A stretch of DNA of 40,654 nt from Patescibacteria group bacterium. Lineage in GTDB: Bacteria > Patescibacteriota > Minisyncoccia > HO2-45-28. Both the position numbers and the translations under genes were made by a program. Shown piece by piece: positions 8,016 to 20,427 of the stretch (its first letter is position 1; each line of letters begins with the position of its first letter). The stretch lies in NCBI GenBank assembly GCA_022563755.1, contig JADFMT010000003.1, positions 1-40,654 on the forward strand, given 5' to 3'. Below the pieces are notes generated by a model. The model did no database searches and was not told where the DNA came from. It saw nothing but the letters and a program-made list of their open reading frames with translations.

Positions 8016-8087
8016 GCCGCGGTAGCTCAGTGGTGGAGCGCTTGCTTGAAGAGCAAGGCGTCGGGGGTTCGATTCCCTCCCGCGGCA
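8016..8087 (+). tRNA. tRNA-Phe(GAA)
   Basis: GCCGCGG/CCGCGGC acceptor, CTTGC-TT-GAA-GA-GCAAG, T-loop TTCGATT. Confidence 0.95.
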
Positions 8088-8379
8088 CTCAAAACAAAAA
8101 GAATGGCATCGCGTCATTCTTTTTGTTTTGAGTTGATGATAGAAACAGGAATCGAACCCTACGAAAGGGGGTACCAGCCGCGAGGCTCTTTCGCAAAGCG
8201 AAAAGCCCCGTCTCCGGGGAAAACTGTAGTTTTCCCCGTGGCGGAAAACAGCGAGACTGAGCTTGTCGAAGCCGAGCGCTAGAAATCCTTCGACACTGAG
8301 CTCAGGACGAAGTGCCGAAGGATTTCTAGGGAGGACCATAAGCGACGACGGGTTCTAGGAGCGCAGCGACGGATTCCCT
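8088..8379 (+). repeat. tRNA-linked structured element, copy 1 (Phe-type)
   Basis: A/T hairpin, then GGAATCGAACCC, a ~100-bp core shared with 15164-15443 and 20074-20352, then GGGTTC..GATTCCCT. Confidence 0.9.
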
Positions 8380-8403
8380 ATATTGAAAAAACCATTGCTT
8401 TTA

Positions 8404-8926: not shown

Positions 8927-9415
8927 TTATTCGTGTTTGATTTTGAGTTTTTGTACCCGTTTTTTGTCGAGTTTAGGAAGACGGATGGTTAGAAGACCAT
9001 TCTTGATTGAAGCTTCTGCAGTTTCCACATCAATTTCCTGCGGGAGCATAATAGCCCGTGAAAACGACCCCCAATAGAGTTCTTGATGAAAATAGCGATC
9101 ATCCGAGACCTCGCGGTGTTTTTCACGCCTCCCCTTAATAGTTACCATGTCTCGAGTAATCGAAACATCTAACTCCTCCGGTTTTAGACCGGCAACTATG
9201 GATTGCATCACAATCTCGTCAGGCGTCTGATATACATCGGCCATAAGCTGTCCCTCACCCTCAACCGGAGGAAGCGGACTTTTTCGCCCCGGGGTGCCTT
9301 GAGCCACGGCCGCATCTGCCGTTACCTGTTCTTCACCGCGTAAAGTGGGTTCGTCGTTGTCTGCCGGATACGATCCGGTGAGTCGTTCAAAAAATAGTCG
9401 TCGATCTTTAGGCAT
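8927..9415 (-). CDS. Hsp20/alpha-crystallin small heat shock protein
   Basis: DVYQT..GLKPEELDVSI..TIKGRR..ELYWGSFSRAIMLP..ASIKNGLLTIRLPK. Confidence 0.95.
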   Translation of the reverse strand: MPKDRRLFFERLTGSYPADNDEPTLRGEEQVTADAAVAQGTPGRKSPLPPVEGEGQLMADVYQTPDEIVMQSIVAGLKPEELDVSITRDMVTIKGRREKHREVSDDRYFHQELYWGSFSRAIMLPQEIDVETAEASIKNGLLTIRLPKLDKKRVQKLKIKHE

Positions 9416-12390: not shown

Positions 12391-13545
12391 CTATTTTATC
12401 ACTTTTTTTTGCCCAAAAGAAAGACGGCCATCTGCTCTCAATTTTTTGGGTTTTGTAAAATCTTTTTTAAGCGCATGAAAATAGCTAGCGGCTGCAATCA
12501 TGGCTGCATTGTCACCCGTAAATGCGCCTTCTGGATAAAGAAAAGATATTTTAAGTATTTTTTTAAGTTCTTTTTGAAGATGCTTATTAGCCGCTACCCC
12601 ACCTCCTAAAATAACGGTTTTTGGATTGAATTTTCTAACGGCTTTTAAGGTTTTTGCAACCAAAACCTCCACTGCTGCATCTTCAAATTCTCGAGCAACC
12701 AATGCCTTATTTAACTTCGGATTTTCCCGAAGCGCATACAGTACTGCGGTTTTCAATCCCGAAAAACTAAAATTAAAATCCGGGGATTTTATCATCGGCC
12801 TTGGAAGTTTAATGTTCGACGCTCGGTGTCGAACCGTTGAAGCGAGTTTTGCCACTTTAGGACCGCCGGGAAACGGCAAACCCAAAAGCCGTCCCACTTT
12901 ATCAAATGCCTCACCCACCGCATCATCCAGAGTTTCGCCAATGATTTTATAATCCAGCCACTTTTTCATGAAAACGAGTTCCGTATGCCCGCCGCTAACC
13001 AAGAGCGCAATCGCTGGGAAGTGAATTACCGGAAAAGACGAAGTGTCTTTGGCCGTGGCGACTCCGGCTGGCTGTGCGATCCTTAATTTGGTCGGAACGA
13101 CCTTTAGAGATATAGGGGCGGAGCCACGGGCAGATGACATCTCGTCTTTATGTAACAAAACAGAGGCTATATGTCCCTCCATATGATTCGCTGCAACAAT
13201 CGGCTTTCTATATTCTTCCGCAAGCCCACGCGCAAAATTGATCCCTTCCCAAAGACATGGTTCAAGTCCGGGTCCTACCGTTACCGCAATAACATCGGCG
13301 TTTTGTATCTTATGTTTAGTGTCTTGTATTTTTTTAAAAAGAATTGGCAAATTACGTTGATGCTCTCTTTTTGCAAGACGAGGAACCACGCCGCCAAAAG
13401 GGGCGTGGGTTTTCACTTGGGAAGAAACGAGATTTATTAAAATATCAAAACGCGGCTTTGAAAAACCACCCTCGGCTTCGATTACCACAAGAGCTGTCTC
13501 ATCACATGATGTTTCAACGGCAAAAATTTTCATAAATTTCCTCAT
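12391..13545 (-). CDS. tsaD: tRNA N6-adenosine threonylcarbamoyltransferase TsaD
   Basis: ETSCDET, GGVVP, GPGL, NHMEGH, SGGHT, DDAVGEAFDK, FSFSGLKT, GGVAAN, DNAAMIA. True start may be 13533. Confidence 0.97.
   Translation of the reverse strand: MRKFMKIFAVETSCDETALVVIEAEGGFSKPRFDILINLVSSQVKTHAPFGGVVPRLAKREHQRNLPILFKKIQDTKHKIQNADVIAVTVGPGLEPCLWEGINFARGLAEEYRKPIVAANHMEGHIASVLLHKDEMSSARGSAPISLKVVPTKLRIAQPAGVATAKDTSSFPVIHFPAIALLVSGGHTELVFMKKWLDYKIIGETLDDAVGEAFDKVGRLLGLPFPGGPKVAKLASTVRHRASNIKLPRPMIKSPDFNFSFSGLKTAVLYALRENPKLNKALVAREFEDAAVEVLVAKTLKAVRKFNPKTVILGGGVAANKHLQKELKKILKISFLYPEGAFTGDNAAMIAAASYFHALKKDFTKPKKLRADGRLSFGQKKVIK
13034..13149. repeat. ~116-bp inverted-repeat element in frame within tsaD
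   Basis: AAAGACGA..GTGTC..CCGTGGC pairs with GCCACGG..GACAT..TCGTCTTT; adds about 38 aa between HMEGH and FPAIALLVSGGHT. Confidence 0.7.
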
Positions 13546-13564
13546 ATAAAGATTATCATAAAGA

Positions 13565-13588
13565 AAGTCCCAGGAATTCCTAGGACTT
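13565..13588 (-). terminator. Hairpin after the 13594-14544 gene
   Basis: AAGTCCTAGGAATTCCTGGGACTT followed by TCTTT on the minus strand. Confidence 0.55.
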
Positions 13589-13593
13589 AAATA

Positions 13594-14544
13594 CTAAGAA
13601 GATTTCAGGAAAAACCGAATGCCAAAAAGTTTACGATTCATCTCTTGGCCCGCTAAACCCACGCGCATTGTGCTATCCGGGCCATTATAGTCCTCGTAAA
13701 ATAAAGAAAGTCCGCTTAGGCGTTTTTTAGACAAAAACATATCATATGCAACACCAAAAACGTAAGACTTGTTGCCTTTGCGGCTCTCTATATGACCGCT
13801 TGCGGAAAGATCAGATACCGGATTCACGCGATAGACAAACCTTGGTGCGCCAAAAAGGGATCGATAAGATTTTCGCACATCCCGATTAAAGAACGAACTA
13901 AATACATCATCAAATTTCGCTTCCCACAAAATCGCATCGAGCCGATATTCAAACGTGAACTTTGGAGCTATCTGCCACTGATGAGCAAAACGGCAAAATA
14001 CGAAATCCCGCGCGCTTATCTCACTAACGTCGATCTTCCGGTTTTCAACAAATTTTCTTGTCTCGCTACTTTCCAGTCCGCCGAACGAATGATGCTGATA
14101 TCCGCAACCAACAAACAGCTCTGGCCGAAAATACCACCGGATATCAAATCCGAGACTCCAAATAGAGGCCCTAACAGATTCCTCTTCGCCCTCGTTAAAG
14201 AAGACTCGGTTTCCGCCCCGCCAAACCCAGGCGAGTTGCTCCGGCCACCAATCGCATATTCCTAAAGCGCGTGTTGGGAGAAGCGAAAGGAGTGGAAACC
14301 CAAACCATGCGCCCTCAATGCTTCCTTCTCTAGAATACAAACCGTTTAAACGACCCTCTAAATCCGCTTTTGTCAAAAGGGGCTCAAACCGCACCTCATC
14401 AAACGAGAAAGACTTTCGGTATTTTGAATACGAAGAGACATAGCATTCATCGTCGTCCGCTTCCCTCGCAAAAGAGGTTGCGGGAGCGACGATTGAAAAA
14501 ACGAGCAGGGTCACAAGAACCCACCAATATCTTATTTTTCTCAT
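13594..14544 (-). CDS. Hypothetical exported protein, beta-barrel-like
   Basis: Signal peptide (..APATSFA), GAGGAGG Shine-Dalgarno, TTGACG-N17-TAGCAT promoter, amphipathic aromatic beta-strand patterns. Confidence 0.75.
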   Translation of the reverse strand: MRKIRYWWVLVTLLVFSIVAPATSFAREADDDECYVSSYSKYRKSFSFDEVRFEPLLTKADLEGRLNGLYSREGSIEGAWFGFPLLSLLPTRALGICDWWPEQLAWVWRGGNRVFFNEGEEESVRASIWSLGFDIRWYFRPELFVGCGYQHHSFGGLESSETRKFVENRKIDVSEISARDFVFCRFAHQWQIAPKFTFEYRLDAILWEAKFDDVFSSFFNRDVRKSYRSLFGAPRFVYRVNPVSDLSASGHIESRKGNKSYVFGVAYDMFLSKKRLSGLSLFYEDYNGPDSTMRVGLAGQEMNRKLFGIRFFLKSS

Positions 14545-14645
14545 CTCTCTACCTCCTCTACAGGTGTAAATGAGCGATTTTTACTACCCCAATGCTATCA
14601 AAATAGGCTTCGGACGTCAACGAGTCTAAAATATTACTTCTTTAT

Positions 14646-14697
14646 GTGCATTTTAGGAGAACAGGTTATTTATGGTGAGTTTGTCGAACTAGAACCT
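14646..14697. repeat. Gly-array junction J5, interrupted by a 23-nt REP-like insert
   Basis: GTGCATTTTAGGAGAACAGGTTA[tttatggtgagtttgtcgaacta]GAACCT. Confidence 0.75.
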
Positions 14698-14720
14698 GTT
14701 TTTTTATATAAAATGTGAAG

Positions 14721-15053
14721 TTAAGGAGTTAGTTTCCATTCTCCCTCCACATGCTTAGCAACTGAATGTCCACCGACTGGAATGCCTTCTTGATCAAAAA
14801 AAGTAACGTGAATAGCGGTAATCGAAGCCTGCCCTTCTGAGTATTGTCCCTTTCTCATGTATGAGTACTCTGTATCTCCATCTTCTCCAGAAACTTTGAT
14901 GTCCCACAGGTAAAGACCGCGTTCATCTTCAAGTTTTCGTACGTCTTCATATCCTTCCTTCCCGACTAATTGTTCAAAAACTGATTGTACCTCTTCTGGG
15001 GTGGGAATAGCCCCTGGTCCTTTTTCAAAAGTGTTTGGTGATCCTTCATGCAT
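14721..15053 (-). CDS. Hypothetical acidic protein
   Basis: 110-aa ORF lying between two junction motifs, with a near-leaderless promoter. Confidence 0.8.
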   Translation of the reverse strand: MHEGSPNTFEKGPGAIPTPEEVQSVFEQLVGKEGYEDVRKLEDERGLYLWDIKVSGEDGDTEYSYMRKGQYSEGQASITAIHVTFFDQEGIPVGGHSVAKHVEGEWKLTP

Positions 15054-15083
15054 ATTTAGATAATACTACAAACCTTATGTTCC

Positions 15084-15121
15084 GTGTATTTAATAAAGCT
15101 ATGTGAAATGTTAGAACCTCT
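15084..15121. repeat. Gly-array junction J4 (degenerate)
   Basis: GTGTATTTAA...GTTAGAACCTCT; the last 12 nt are identical to J3. Confidence 0.55.
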
Positions 15122-15163
15122 ACCAAATTACTGAAAAACCGTTTAGTTTTCAGAAAAACCAGT

Positions 15164-15443
15164 GGGAGAATCCGCTTCCCTGCCTGCCGGCAGACAGGGC
15201 TAGAACTCGTCGTCCCTCGACTTCGCTCGGGACTCCCTAGAAACCGAGGGGGTTTCTAGCGCTCGTCCGCCAGCTGGCGGACTCACTGTTTTCCGCCACG
15301 GGGAAAACTACAGTTTTCCCCGGAGACGGGGCTTTTCGCTTTACGAAAGAGCCTCGCGTCTGGCACCCCCTTTCGCGAGTTCGATTCTCTAACTCATCAA
15401 ATCAAAACAAAAAGAACGACATAAAGCCGTTCTTTTTGTTTTG
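15164..15443 (-). repeat. tRNA-linked structured element, copy 2 (Gly-type)
   Basis: Same hairpin and core as copy 1. Read on the minus strand it carries GAGAATCGAACTC, GAGTTC and GATTCTCCC, matching the tRNA-Gly T-arm. Confidence 0.9.
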
Positions 15444-15473
15444 TGCACTTTAGGGGAATAGGTTAGAACCTCT
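15443..15473. repeat. Gly-array junction J3
   Basis: GTGCACTTTAGGGGAATAGGTTAGAACCTCT, 28/31 identical to J2. Confidence 0.85.
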
Positions 15474-15619
15474 CTTAAGGCATTAACTGATTATTCTACA
15501 TTTGAAATGGTAACATTTTTAGTAGCGTTATTCCCATAGCACCTCGACCCGATATTAAATTGACACTCTCTACCACTTTTTGCATTATAAACTAAGTATA
15601 TAATTTAACTAATAATGCT

Positions 15620-16597
15620 TTGAAAAAGTATACTTTAAAAAGAGAAATACAAATCCAGAGATTTAAGAATAATCCTTTATTGGAGCCAGATCAATCTCAT
15701 GCCTGGATGAGTAAGAATGTATTTAACTGCGGGGTTATTATTGACGATGACGGCTTCTATAAAATGCTCTTTCGTGGTTCTTGGACTGAAGATCAGTCAA
15801 TGTCTGATTTGGGACTTGCAATCAGCGTTAACGGAAAAAAATGGTATGTTCTGGATAAACCAGTTCTAAAGTGTGGATTTAATAAGTTTTGCACATATGG
15901 CATTGACGACCCAAGAATTGTGAAATGGATTGACGGTTGGAAATATATTTTTGCAGCAATTCGCCCGTATAAGAAGGAATATAGAACAGTAGGTATTTTT
16001 AGAACAAAAAATTTCTTAGAATATGAGTGGGTTGGAATGCCATTCAACTTCGAAGATGTAGATGCTTCTATTTTCCCTGAACCAATTAACGGTTGGGCAT
16101 ATTTACTTCATAGAAAAGCTCCGCATATATGGATTTCTCGAACGAAAGATATGAGTTTAGAAAGTGGCTGGCAGGATATCCAAATTTTGATCAATAAAGA
16201 CCAATTTTATCGGCATCCTGAACATGGTGTTCTGCCTGACAAAATAGGTATTGCCGGACCACCAATAAGAACTCCCAAAGGTTGGCTGTTAATTACACAC
16301 GCGGTTCATCGATGGGACAAGAAGATAACAAGGTACTCTTTTCTTCTCAACCGGTCATACTCACTTAGCTTTGTAGTACTTGATTTAGAGAATCCTACAA
16401 AGGTTCTCTACGTCCACCCAAAACCCATATTATGGCCGGAGGAAAGACATGAAATTGTGGGCCTTATTCCAAATGTGGTCTTTAGCTGCGCCACTGTTGA
16501 TACCGGAGGCGATTCACTCTATATCTACTGGGGTGGAGCCGACACGGTAATTTGTGGTGGTAAACTTATGAAAAAAGATCTACCAATGTGCTATTAA
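15620..16597 (+). CDS. Predicted glycosidase/phosphorylase, GH130 (DUF377)-like beta-propeller
   Basis: NPLLEP..VFNCG, GIDDPRI, FPEPING, LHR, PPIRTPKGWLLITH, LDLENP, PNVVFSC, YIYWGGADT; TTG start; AT-rich. Confidence 0.88.
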   Translation: MKKYTLKREIQIQRFKNNPLLEPDQSHAWMSKNVFNCGVIIDDDGFYKMLFRGSWTEDQSMSDLGLAISVNGKKWYVLDKPVLKCGFNKFCTYGIDDPRIVKWIDGWKYIFAAIRPYKKEYRTVGIFRTKNFLEYEWVGMPFNFEDVDASIFPEPINGWAYLLHRKAPHIWISRTKDMSLESGWQDIQILINKDQFYRHPEHGVLPDKIGIAGPPIRTPKGWLLITHAVHRWDKKITRYSFLLNRSYSLSFVVLDLENPTKVLYVHPKPILWPEERHEIVGLIPNVVFSCATVDTGGDSLYIYWGGADTVICGGKLMKKDLPMCY

Positions 16598-16606
16598 ACC
16601 CTCTCT

Positions 16607-16638
16607 GCCTACTTCTAAATTTAGAAGTAGGCTCTTTT
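16607..16638 (+). terminator. Intrinsic terminator (perfect 26-bp palindrome)
   Basis: GCCTACTTCTAAATTTAGAAGTAGGC followed by TCTTTT. Confidence 0.7.
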
Positions 16639-16639
16639 A

Positions 16640-16670
16640 GTACACTTTAGGGGAACAGGTTAAAACCTCT
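16640..16670. repeat. Gly-array junction J2
   Basis: GTACACTTTAGGGGAACAGGTTAAAACCTCT. Confidence 0.85.
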
Positions 16671-16744
16671 TTTAGAAGCAGAGTTTAAGCCCCCCCCGTT
16701 TTTTCATACTGCTTATAGTACATCCGTAAAAAATTGGCGTGTTT

Positions 16745-18142
16745 TTATGGTGCGTACACATAATACACCCTCCCCTTATAGTCGTCTGTGAAGAAAAACG
16801 AATTTACATCATTTTGTAAAATATCGACTGGCCGCCCGAAGCGCTCTATGTCTCCGGTTGGCTGATCGGAATGTGCGTAAGCGGTGCTAATAAGCCACCC
16901 AGTTTGCGGTCTCTTTTCGGTTAAAAAACCATCCATGAATACCTCTTGTTCTCCATCCTTTGATACCCTAACTATGTGATACCCTGCACCGATCTTCGGC
17001 TCAAAAGAACCATGTAGAGCAACAAGAAATGTATTTTTTAGAACTGAATGTGCATCCTTAGAAAAATATTCAATACCAAGTGGTGCCGCATGTGGCTCAA
17101 ACGCGGAAAATGAACGCGGCACTTGTGCACATGAAAATGATTGTGTCCATTTTCGGGAAGTATCGGGATAAATTTTTCCATTTAATTCGTAACAGAATGG
17201 CCATCCATAATACTCACCTTCGATGAGCTTATACATACCATCGTCCGGCGCTTGAGGTCCAAGATGATCAGCTCCGTTCGCTGTCGCGTATAATTCTCTG
17301 CCTGCCCATGTAAAACCGACTGTATTCCGCAGCCCATCTGCATAGATCCGCTTATTGCCACCATCGGGATTTATGCTATATATCATAGCGCGCATTTCGT
17401 CCTCAGGTTGCTCACACGCATTACAACCACTGCCAACAGAAACATACAACCGATTATCGTAAAATTTGATCGTACGAGTGATATGCCACACAACACTTGA
17501 TTCTCCAGGCACCTGCTTATTGGGAAATGTCGTTATTATCTCCGGATCACCTGATGGCTCTGTGTCTCCTGCGCTATATGGATACCGAACGATATGCGCG
17601 GTAAGCGCAATATATATCCACTCTTGGCCATTTTTATCAGTATAAAATGCGACGCTATTAGGTCCCCGCAATCCAGAAAGATAGGTGCTTTTTGTTTGGA
17701 ATCGCTTATTTATTTCGTCAAAATTTTCTAAAACATAGATTTTTCCCTCGTGGGAAAGATTCATACTAACGAGATCTGGCACAAACATTCTTCCATCTGG
17801 ACTCATAGCCATAAATCGTGCTTTGCCCAAACCTTCTGCCGCAACAGAGATGTTAAAATCCTCAGCAACCTCGAACATGACTTCAGTTCCGTCTTCAAAT
17901 ATGATGATCCGAGGCACAAGATTGATAGTCGGAAGTACATCACTTTTACCGTCACCGACCTTAATCTGTGTGTTATTGAGAATTGCTTCAAAATCTGCTT
18001 GTTTTTCATCACCAATGTTATCAGAGGTAGAATTATCGGCCTTGTCTGAACGAGTCGTATTGTTAAAAAGAAACACTCCGCCCATAATCAGTACCAAGGC
18101 GATGACGATTCCCATAATCAAATTTTTAACATTCATAGACAC
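16745..18142 (-). CDS. Membrane-anchored glucose/sorbosone dehydrogenase family (PQQ-type propeller) protein
   Basis: N-terminal TM helix; H-TRTI, LYVSVGSGCNAC, GLRNTVG, YGWPFC, PHAAPLG, VALHGS, GRPVD. Confidence 0.88.
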   Translation of the reverse strand: MSMNVKNLIMGIVIALVLIMGGVFLFNNTTRSDKADNSTSDNIGDEKQADFEAILNNTQIKVGDGKSDVLPTINLVPRIIIFEDGTEVMFEVAEDFNISVAAEGLGKARFMAMSPDGRMFVPDLVSMNLSHEGKIYVLENFDEINKRFQTKSTYLSGLRGPNSVAFYTDKNGQEWIYIALTAHIVRYPYSAGDTEPSGDPEIITTFPNKQVPGESSVVWHITRTIKFYDNRLYVSVGSGCNACEQPEDEMRAMIYSINPDGGNKRIYADGLRNTVGFTWAGRELYATANGADHLGPQAPDDGMYKLIEGEYYGWPFCYELNGKIYPDTSRKWTQSFSCAQVPRSFSAFEPHAAPLGIEYFSKDAHSVLKNTFLVALHGSFEPKIGAGYHIVRVSKDGEQEVFMDGFLTEKRPQTGWLISTAYAHSDQPTGDIERFGRPVDILQNDVNSFFFTDDYKGRVYYVYAP

Positions 18143-18178
18143 TTATTTTTACTATACATTAACAGAACATAATAAAAG

Positions 18179-18203
18179 GTGTACTCACAGCCGTGTTAGA
18201 ACC
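18179..18203. repeat. Gly-array junction J1 (degenerate)
   Basis: GTGTAC-N10-GTTAGAACC. Confidence 0.55.
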
Positions 18204-18333
18204 CGCAAAAGTTGTGATTTAAGAACGGTCTAAGCGCTACTCAAGCGCCAAAACTTGTATTCTGTGCGGAGCCCCTCACTTCGTTTCGGGACGCTACATT
18301 TTTCAGCCAATCGCTTCGCTCTTGGGAAAAATG

Positions 18334-18404
18334 TGCGGGTAGGGAGAATCGAACTCCCGTCATCTGATTGGCAACCAGATGTTTTGCCACTAAACTATAC
18401 CCGC
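18334..18404 (-). tRNA. tRNA-Gly(GCC)
   Basis: GCGGGTA/TACCCGC acceptor, TCTGG-TT-GCC-AA-TCAGA, T-arm GGGAG-TTCGATT-CTCCC. Confidence 0.95.
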
Positions 18405-20053: not shown

Positions 20054-20073
20054 ACCTAATAATCTTTAAATAG

Positions 20074-20352
20074 GTGGGCGTTGGAGGACTCCGTCGCTTC
20101 CTGCCGGCAGGCAGGCGCTTCTAGAACCCGTCGTCCCTCGATTTTACTCGGGACTCCCTAGAAACCCCTCGGTTTCTAGCGCTCGCTTCGCTCGCTGTTT
20201 TCCGCCACGGGGAAAACTACAGTTTTCCCCGAAGACGGGGCTTTTCGCTTTGCGAAAGAGCCTCGCGTCTGGCACCCCCTTTCGTGGGTTCGAGTCCCAA
20301 CAAACACAATACACAAAATAACAAACACCATTAAAAAGATGTTTATTATTTT
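20074..20352 (-). repeat. tRNA-linked structured element, copy 3 (Val-type) with 18-bp tRNA 3' duplication
   Basis: Core shared with copies 1 and 2; GTGGGCGTTGGAGGACTC occurs at 20074-20091 and 20353-20370. Confidence 0.92.
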
Positions 20353-20353
20353 G

Positions 20354-20427
20354 TGGGCGTTGGAGGACTCGAACCTCCGGCCTTCTCGATGTCACCGAGA
20401 CGCTCTAACCGGCTGAGCTAAACGCCC
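20354..20427 (-). tRNA. tRNA-Val(GAC)
   Basis: GGGCGTT/AACGCCC acceptor, TCTCG-GT-GAC-AT-CGAGA, T-arm GGAGG-TTCGAGT-CCTCC. Confidence 0.95.

Follow-up and report, generated by a model that had tools for sequence, protein, structure and literature searches.

The stretch of DNA analysed here, referred to as the window, is 40,654 nt long. ARAGORN identifies nine tRNA genes within it, and a search against Rfam at the gathering score returns only the nine tRNAs. Matches to a covariance model locate three copies of a small structured element. Copy 1 lies behind tRNA-Phe and copy 3 behind tRNA-Val(GAC), and copy 2 is without an adjacent tRNA. The features are as follows, with the basis of each assignment in brackets.

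8016 to 8088, plus strand: tRNA-Phe(GAA), target of copy 1 (ARAGORN, Rfam)
8090 to 8130, plus strand: A/T-rich hairpin that separates tRNA-Phe from copy 1 (the spacer upstream of copy 2 is a homologous hairpin)
8142 to 8390, plus strand: copy 1, behind tRNA-Phe (covariance-model match)
8148 to 8159, plus strand: arm of copy 1, GGAATCGAACCC, antisense to the tRNA T-arm (sequence, arm scoring)
8160 to 8349, plus strand: folded core of copy 1 (covariance-model match, alignment)
8350 to 8379, plus strand: split sense T-arm of copy 1, comprising GGGTTC (8350 to 8355), a 16-nt conserved insert (8356 to 8371) and GATTCCCT (8372 to 8379)
12391 to 13545, minus strand: tsaD (Pfam)
13546 to 15163, minus strand: distal part of the island between tRNA-Gly and tsaD, with ORFs of 110 aa (14721 to 15053) and 316 aa (13594 to 14544), and RGGTTCTAR motifs at 14689 and 15111
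15154 to 15394, minus strand: copy 2, without adjacent tRNA (covariance-model match)
15164 to 15208, minus strand: split sense T-arm of copy 2, comprising GAGTTC (15203 to 15208), a palindrome-bearing insert (15173 to 15202) and GATTCTCCC (15164 to 15172)
15209 to 15376, minus strand: folded core of copy 2, with optional inserted hairpins (covariance-model match)
15377 to 15389, minus strand: arm of copy 2, GAGAATCGAACTC (sequence, arm scoring)
15402 to 15443, minus strand: hairpin spacer upstream of copy 2 (sequence)
15444 to 18332, both strands: the 2.9 kb between tRNA-Gly and copy 2, with a GH130 ORF (15620 to 16597, plus strand) and a GSDH-like ORF (16745 to 18142, minus strand)
18333 to 18404, minus strand: tRNA-Gly(GCC), the best-matching candidate partner of copy 2 (ARAGORN, arm and sense scoring)
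20073 to 20303, minus strand: copy 3, behind tRNA-Val(GAC) (covariance-model match)
20075 to 20129, minus strand: split sense T-arm of copy 3, comprising GGGTTC (20124 to 20129), an insert (20092 to 20123) and an exact 17-nt tRNA-Val 3' end (20075 to 20091)
20130 to 20285, minus strand: folded core of copy 3 (covariance-model match)
20286 to 20298, minus strand: arm of copy 3 (sequence)
20353 to 20427, minus strand: tRNA-Val(GAC), target of copy 3 (ARAGORN)

All three copies are built from the same parts. The 5' arm is the reverse complement of a tRNA T-arm, and it is followed by a long core that is near-identical in the alignment, the mean column identity of the three copies being 75%. Some 170–190 nt past the arm the T-arm appears again in the sense orientation, as a 5' half (RGGTTC), an insert and a 3' half, with the insert falling exactly between tRNA positions 56 and 57 (numbering by eye). 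A sequence-only reading of this DNA had quoted nine such segments from copies 1–3, and all nine are found in the sequence.

The 16-nt insert closely resembles the last 22 nt or so of minimal cores (by eye). Few relatives have a match to a regular expression for it, so that it is specific to the subtype seen in the window; where it is missing (L169, L174 and L139), the core is joined directly to an uninterrupted tRNA 3' part. It may be kink-turn-like, or alternatively the repeated GCGNAGC of the element may be a stable DNA mini-hairpin. The genome has no L7Ae match that would go with the kink-turn-like reading.

Two smaller repeats are also present. The 14-nt palindrome CCGCCRGCYGGCGG has 12 sites in 781 kb, with well under one expected. 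Three are in the window (15267, 18599 and 19385) and nine elsewhere in the genome; it is located in loops of the element and also within ORFs, and looks like a dispersed mini-palindrome insert. The related palindrome CTGCCKGCMGGCAG lies within the inserts of copies 2 and 3. An optional hairpin module of the core (AGACGCGAGGC...GCCCCGTCT), seen in copies 1–3, also stands alone, away from any element (L007, 1137–1185; contig C24 of G000, at about 26143), and in L118, from another genome, it occupies another position within the core. Its behaviour is that of a small independent insert.

The fold of the core is conserved. Counted over 81 distinct sequences, in an alignment fitted to the model, which favours pairing, paired cells make up 91.9%, against 77.9% in shuffles. 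Changes on both sides are seen at 30 of the 32 pairs, a number reached by none of 500 shuffles, and controls in which the partners were slid gave 36–64% paired. In the outer helix, copying of the target would by itself be enough to produce covariation. For the inner helices (2–6), there are 118 G.U combinations against 32 A.C, an excess which indicates that the folding strand is the given, tRNA-sense strand. The folded form may be RNA, which the GNRA-like loops and G.U pairs suit, or single-stranded DNA, in which a mini-hairpin of the GCGNAGC kind is unusually stable. Optional hairpins are found at peripheral positions of the core, and a local hairpin just past the arm competes with the inner closing helix. 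Three sequences (L029, L076 and L087) have a second topology of about 127 nt, in which the conserved pieces come in permuted order (by eye).

A covariance model (R1), built from 14 copies, was used to find the element elsewhere. The 781-kb (0.78 Mb) genome has 47 tRNAs, one tmRNA and 10 copies of the element. Seven are located 1–53 nt behind a same-strand tRNA (Phe, Val, Lys-CTT, Lys-TTT, Met, Tyr and Gln), the longest exact repeat at these seven being 8–31 nt, and an eighth is behind the 3' part of a tRNA-Gln at a contig end. The two without adjacent tRNA are copy 2 and another copy of the Gln type, located 7 kb beyond the first. Twelve of 40 relatives carry the element, with 2–11 copies each; they comprise 7 of 8 genomes of the same family and 5 of 32 from other families of the class. 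Across a sample of the phylum it is found in 11 of 150 genomes, with 1–5 copies each, a figure that is a floor, given strict filters and a model of one subtype.

In total, 75 stretches gave 84 model matches, from which two duplicate stretches and one partial match were excluded, leaving the 81 distinct matches that were examined. A same-strand tRNA or tmRNA lies upstream within 250 nt in 45 of the 81, and within 150 nt in 42, where 17 kinds are represented; the remaining 36 have none within 250 nt, a few of them being cut by contig ends. Simpler searches returned less. Among the 115 stretches listed by a pattern scan of the genome collection most are chance matches, the motif being too short, and nhmmer kept at least 15 loci from other genomes, all labelled as Patescibacteria-type or just as 'bacterium'. 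Two motif scans of viral contigs gave 2 and 0 stretches, and the 2 failed the model. Compared with Rfam 15 at E values up to 10, copy 2 gives only chance-level matches (the best being BSnc120, with 27 bits against a gathering score of 114), and four other variants at E up to 0.01 match only tRNA and tmRNA. Full-text literature searches, judged at the level of the result lists, found no description of the element. It is an undescribed family, patchy, multi-copy and gene-less, in Patescibacteria.

The sequence-only reading had held that three separated segments change in concert with the neighbouring tRNA. A comparison of the segments agrees with this, as does a genome-wide pairing test, in which the arms at 8 independent loci were scored against their assigned tRNAs and against 20000 random pairings. 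The summed score is 106, compared with a random mean of 64.9 (sd 6.1), and none of the 20000 reaches 106; the arms fit their own tRNAs far better than random ones. The assigned tRNA comes top (ties included) at 5 of the 8 loci, and second or third at the other 3 (Phe, Val and Lys-CTT). T-loops are similar among tRNAs, and the arm alone is for this reason not uniquely diagnostic of the partner.

For copy 2, which had been said to match only tRNA-Gly(GCC), this is correct among the tRNAs of the window but not across the genome. The arm matches tRNA-Gly(GCC) and tRNA-Ala(GGC) equally well (13 each), and when all tRNAs of the genome are considered the two sense segments match Gly(GCC) and Leu(CAG) equally well (15/17). 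Gly(GCC) is the sole tRNA to head both lists, and it is located 2.9 kb upstream on the same strand. It is the best available assignment, with narrow margins. An element directly beside this tRNA is indeed present in another Patescibacteria genome (L118), behind tRNA-Gly(GCC).

The element is not a tRNA device. Its core recurs in relatives at the 3' ends of rpmG, alaS (at the CGGPHV motif) and uvrC, at the C-terminal zinc-finger motif of secA, and at one unnamed gene end. It is also found in antisense orientation at two 5' ends, that of fusA (at the AHIDAGK P-loop) and that of a GT4-like glycosyltransferase gene. The gene and motif names at these sites come from reading of the translations, and the name GT4-like from the motif alone. 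At these protein genes the arm is matched to the local sequence, and beyond the core the gene end is found a second time.

A common layout can be described for all of these sites. Going outward from the retained body of the gene, one first meets a segment that repeats the end of the target and makes the gene whole (U). Next is a spacer, in many cases a hairpin and in some a cargo of genes kilobases long. It is followed by the arm (A), 9–18 nt, which is complementary in reverse to the target sequence at the junction or spanning it, and by the conserved folded core. Last comes D, in which the end of the target is present once more, as a displaced copy. The element is about 125–250 nt in size, minimal elements being without an ORF; the duplicated segment extends as far as the gene end and measures 8 to over 100 nt. 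Most often the target is a tRNA or tmRNA, from the T-arm through to the 3' end, and otherwise a conserved motif close to the end of an essential protein gene. The orientation of the element is set by the gene end, not by the direction of transcription, which argues for a logic at the level of DNA. The sequence-only reading had suggested that the antisense arm might act as a guide or switch pairing with the tRNA. A tRNA-specific role does not fit with a core that also bears arms matched to protein-gene sites, and a switch acting on a co-transcribed tRNA does not fit with antisense elements at the 5' ends of fusA and the glycosyltransferase gene; together, these observations point to DNA-level integration rather than regulation of a co-transcribed tRNA.

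The arm generally fits the upstream copy better. At 30 non-tRNA sites with at least 300 nt upstream, its longest match is longer in U than in D at 22, equal at 4, and shorter at 4, and the match to U is 9 nt or more at 15 of the 30. At some tRNA loci (L162 and L083), the arm is exact to the upstream tRNA, and the downstream fragment is the end of a different or decayed tRNA; there is one reverse case (C28). An RNA origin was considered for the CCA that some displaced tRNA ends carry when the neighbouring gene lacks it, and was rejected since the reverse also occurs.

The protein-gene sites allow U and D to be compared codon by codon. For fusA in G008, 12 codons are identical, 10 differ synonymously and 0 change the amino acid; for rpmG in G003, the numbers are 7, 9 and 1; and for alaS they are 15, 15 and 8, where 5 of the 8 changing codons are the first five aligned codons at the junction (read by eye) and both copies have their stop at the corresponding position. 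Since most of the differences are synonymous, U and D are two functional alleles of different lineages that have become joined. An in-place target-site duplication at alaS, rpmG and fusA of G008 was rejected on these grounds, because the decay of such a duplicate would not spare the protein sequence. Such a duplication is possible for fusA in G003, where the two copies are identical over 70 nt; this identity indicates either a recent event or gene conversion.

Insertion is polymorphic, the fusA site being empty in the source genome. The D copy of G008 is nearest to this empty allele (8/61 differences), and the U copy of G008 is nearest to the U copy of G003 (also 8/61). In this small sample, the relationships suggest that U travels with the element and that D is the displaced resident end.

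We now return to copy 2. The gap between tRNA-Gly and tsaD is 4.8 kb in the window, and contains the GSDH-like gene, the GH130 gene, copy 2 and two further ORFs, those of 110 and 316 aa, which match no Pfam family. In one relative (G005), tRNA-Gly(GCC) is followed at once by an ORF with a TsaD-like start (by eye), and in another (G006; L218, contig C34) a small GIY-YIG-like ORF (by eye) lies between tRNA-Gly(GCC) and a tsaD-like ORF. The stretch from tRNA-Gly to tsaD is thus a variable island. The window contains 7 instances of the motif RGGTTCTAR, which joins the sense half to the start of the insert, where 2.3 are expected; 4 of the 7 are on the minus strand inside the tRNA-Gly island, flanking gene units, and these motifs may be remnants of older junctions. 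Taken together, the variable content and the flanking motifs indicate that the tRNA-Gly region has been entered repeatedly. Elsewhere in G005 (L230; contig C3, about 9080–9160), the 3' end of tRNA-Gly(GCC) is repeated over 25 nt at a distance of 40 nt past another tRNA; no core lies in between, and the repeat is preceded by sequence like the arm of another G005 element.

The sequence-only reading had concluded that copy 2 once abutted tRNA-Gly and was displaced by two later cassettes, so that new cassettes enter at the tRNA-proximal end. Proximal entry is supported by arrays at other loci in which the proximal target is intact, but the displacement of copy 2 by two cassettes stays at the level of the plausible: the 2.9 kb could equally be cargo that came with copy 2 in one event. 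One such array is on contig C31, where two Gln-type copies in tandem bracket 7 kb of accessory genes, with an intact target at the proximal end. The genes encode a ThsB-type TIR protein, a DUF2779 protein, an RNase T-like exonuclease and others, none of them a recombinase. The ThsB-type TIR, a Thoeris-like defence domain, and the DUF2779 protein of 490 aa are found at L006, 6376–6819 (contig C31 of G000).

The cores also recombine with each other. At one locus (L168; contig C32 of G008, 54012–54859), three copies are packed into 850 nt at rpmG and tRNA-Trp. The one in the middle combines one copy's arm with another's downstream flank, and tRNA-Trp is present twice. Chimeric copies such as these (L168 and L176) imply unequal recombination between cores, a process that can homogenise the cores within a genome. 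Copies 1 and 2 have homologous spacers and cores and differing arms. Differing arms on near-identical cores need either old, specialised lineages together with gene conversion, or rewriting of the arm. Imperfect inverted repeats are known in general to allow template switching; this would suffice to rewrite the arm, and is the only route for rewriting that we suggest.

The source genome, which is 100% complete by marker genes, was searched for an enzyme that might drive the element. It has one tyrosine recombinase, on another contig, and no match to RVT_1, TnpB-type, IS110-type (two families, PF01548 and PF02371), resolvase or Y1 transposase models. Over 41 genomes, there is typically one tyrosine recombinase per genome with or without the element, and Y1 transposases are found in 8 of the 13 genomes that carry it and in 17 of the 28 that do not. 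Many relatives (G007, G014, G026 and others) have Y1_Tnp genes, as ORFs of 215–290 aa with up to 9 copies per genome; the source genome has none. DUF2779 was considered as a partner and rejected, being present in 4 of the 41 genomes. No recombinase, reverse transcriptase or guide-RNA nuclease tracks the element in the genomes compared, and the 2.9-kb and 7-kb inserts contain no integrase. Neither an excised form nor a circle junction nor a transcript was observed; no RNA sequencing run was listed as containing this DNA, and for the DNA runs listed the share was only 0.05–0.08. Candidate drivers are a universal host enzyme, one of outside origin, and general recombination following the uptake of DNA.

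A parallel in layout is seen with the RtT RNA (rttR, RF00391) of the 178-bp repeats distal to tyrT in E. coli, whose function has been unexplained since their discovery. The resemblance does not extend to the sequence or the model: RF00391 has no match in the window at the gathering score, in copy 2 at E up to 10, or in four other variants at E up to 0.01. Behind tyrV in E. coli K-12 (NC_000913, 1286700–1287330; L233), there are tandem units that each end in a copy of the tRNA-Tyr 3' end. Each of the three 178-bp units has a 10-nt arm that is 100% complementary to its own tRNA-Tyr 3' copy, and over 22 nt the arm region is 86% complementary to the T-arm of tyrV. To our knowledge, this inverted arm has not been described. 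RtT differs in that its large structured insert is located between the two sense halves, whereas in the element it is between the arm and the sense half; and RtT is known only at tRNA-Tyr, with no protein-gene targets described.

Genomic islands and prophages that use the region from the T-loop to the 3' end of tRNA or tmRNA genes share with the element a direct repeat, restoration of the gene by sequence carried on the element, tandem arrays and cargo. Unlike them, the element has no integrase in or near it, is mostly about 200 nt long, and has a conserved fold and a complementary arm. Free-standing endonuclease genes of fungal mitochondria are known to replace gene ends in the manner of homing, one such site being atp6 of Allomyces. 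Here the common features are a site at a conserved motif of an essential gene, a foreign functional end upstream with the native end downstream, and hence two diverged functional copies of the gene end; the differences are that the minimal element has no endonuclease or ORF, and that an RNA or DNA fold stands in its place.

Folded or guide-bearing sites are known from integron attC, CTX-phage attP, the ends of IS200/IS605 elements with their internal guides, and the bridge RNA of IS110. With these the element may share a strand-specific fold by the crossover and an internal segment that pairs with the target or junction. Their defining enzymes, however, are absent or do not track the element. 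The guide of IS608 is 4 nt compared with an arm of 9–18 nt, and the element also duplicates the target end. This duplication also sets it apart from IS200/IS605 derivatives (PATE) and from TnpB/IscB systems, for which the genome has no Y1_Tnp or TnpB-type match. The DEDD recombinase of IS110/IS1111 is absent from the genome. Integron attC cassettes are defined by an IntI integrase and R''/R' boxes; the junctions of the element differ from the GTTRRRY box, and the tyrosine recombinase, typically one per genome, may or may not be IntI-like. Group I and group II introns and retroelements find no Rfam intron match and no RVT_1. MITEs have fixed inverted repeats and a fixed short duplication, whereas the inverted segment of the element changes with the site. 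Of the known kinds compared here, all but attC differ from the element in one or more defining features.

The reading that we consider on balance the probable one is that these are small, protein-less, site-specific insertion elements of Patescibacteria, of an integrative or homing type, consisting of a replacement gene end, a spacer or cargo, an arm and a core. On this model, the unit of U, spacer, A and core would enter as one piece at a conserved site. Within a folded single strand, either RNA or single-stranded DNA, base pairing between the arm and the junction sequence would mark or guide the site of recombination. The intact site regenerated at U would permit repeated entry, and repeated entry would lead to tandem arrays in which the oldest remnants are farthest from the gene. 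Copy 2 would then be a Gly(GCC)-specific member of an island at tRNA-Gly.

A stronger form of this, which we regard as tentative and rather unlikely, is that arm and core together form a programmable guide, of RNA or single-stranded DNA, that steers a universal host enzyme, such as the single Xer-type recombinase or one still unrecognised, to whatever site the arm is complementary to and has the linked DNA inserted there, with the RtT repeats as a relic of this principle. If true, it would amount to nucleic-acid-guided integration without a dedicated protein gene.

It is doubtful that the copies are conventional remnants, namely the attachment-site arm regions of islands or prophages whose integrase has been lost and whose arm has no role. 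The direct repeats of tRNA 3' ends and the replaced gene ends are traces that integrase-driven elements leave, accessory-gene islands do occur between target and core, and the tRNA 3' fragment without a core at L230 would fit as well. However, most copies in the genome are minimal, with 1–53 nt from tRNA to arm; one conserved fold with compensatory changes is common to the copies; and a site-specific complementary arm stands beside a conserved spacer and core. There are also up to 11 copies in a genome against typically one tyrosine recombinase, with no serine recombinase in the source genome, and the two motif scans of viral contigs gave no match.

We think it still less probable that the element is a tRNA-linked non-coding RNA, co-transcribed with the tRNA, whose arm pairs with the T-arm to control its folding, processing or repair. 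Such an RNA would be expected directly behind the tRNA on the same strand, which is where the element often is, and in one case (C10) it lies between two tRNAs without a terminator. Pairing between arm and tRNA is possible over up to 17–19 nt, the G.U excess indicates that the tRNA-sense strand folds, and the local hairpin is in competition with the inner helix. Yet the same core is found at protein genes, including in antisense at 5' ends; only 8 of the 47 tRNA loci in the genome have the element, and it was not found in 28 of the 40 relatives; a hairpin and then a run of T usually separate tRNA and element; and the displaced fragments are foreign or decayed alleles. Similarly improbable is a REP/BIME-like repeat useful to the host as a terminator, RNA stabiliser or hot spot, and spread by homologous recombination with gene-end duplicates as by-products: elements just past gene ends, conserved hairpins, the observed recombination between cores and the uptake of DNA by Patescibacteria would all accord with it, but it fails to explain arms matched to their sites, junctions precisely at conserved motifs, and an orientation set by the gene end, not transcription.

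On a cautious reading, protein-less insertion elements of this kind represent a widespread non-coding family that has been missed by annotation pipelines, and one that creates partial duplicates of tRNAs and gene ends in metagenome-assembled genomes. If the arm sets the destination, they would represent a new way for DNA to move, by means of a fold of roughly 150 nt that carries no gene and whose address can be rewritten. This would account for the variable islands at tRNA genes in ultra-small bacteria that have almost no transposases or integrases, for the duplicated ends at conserved motifs of essential genes, and possibly also for the tyrT repeats of E. coli.
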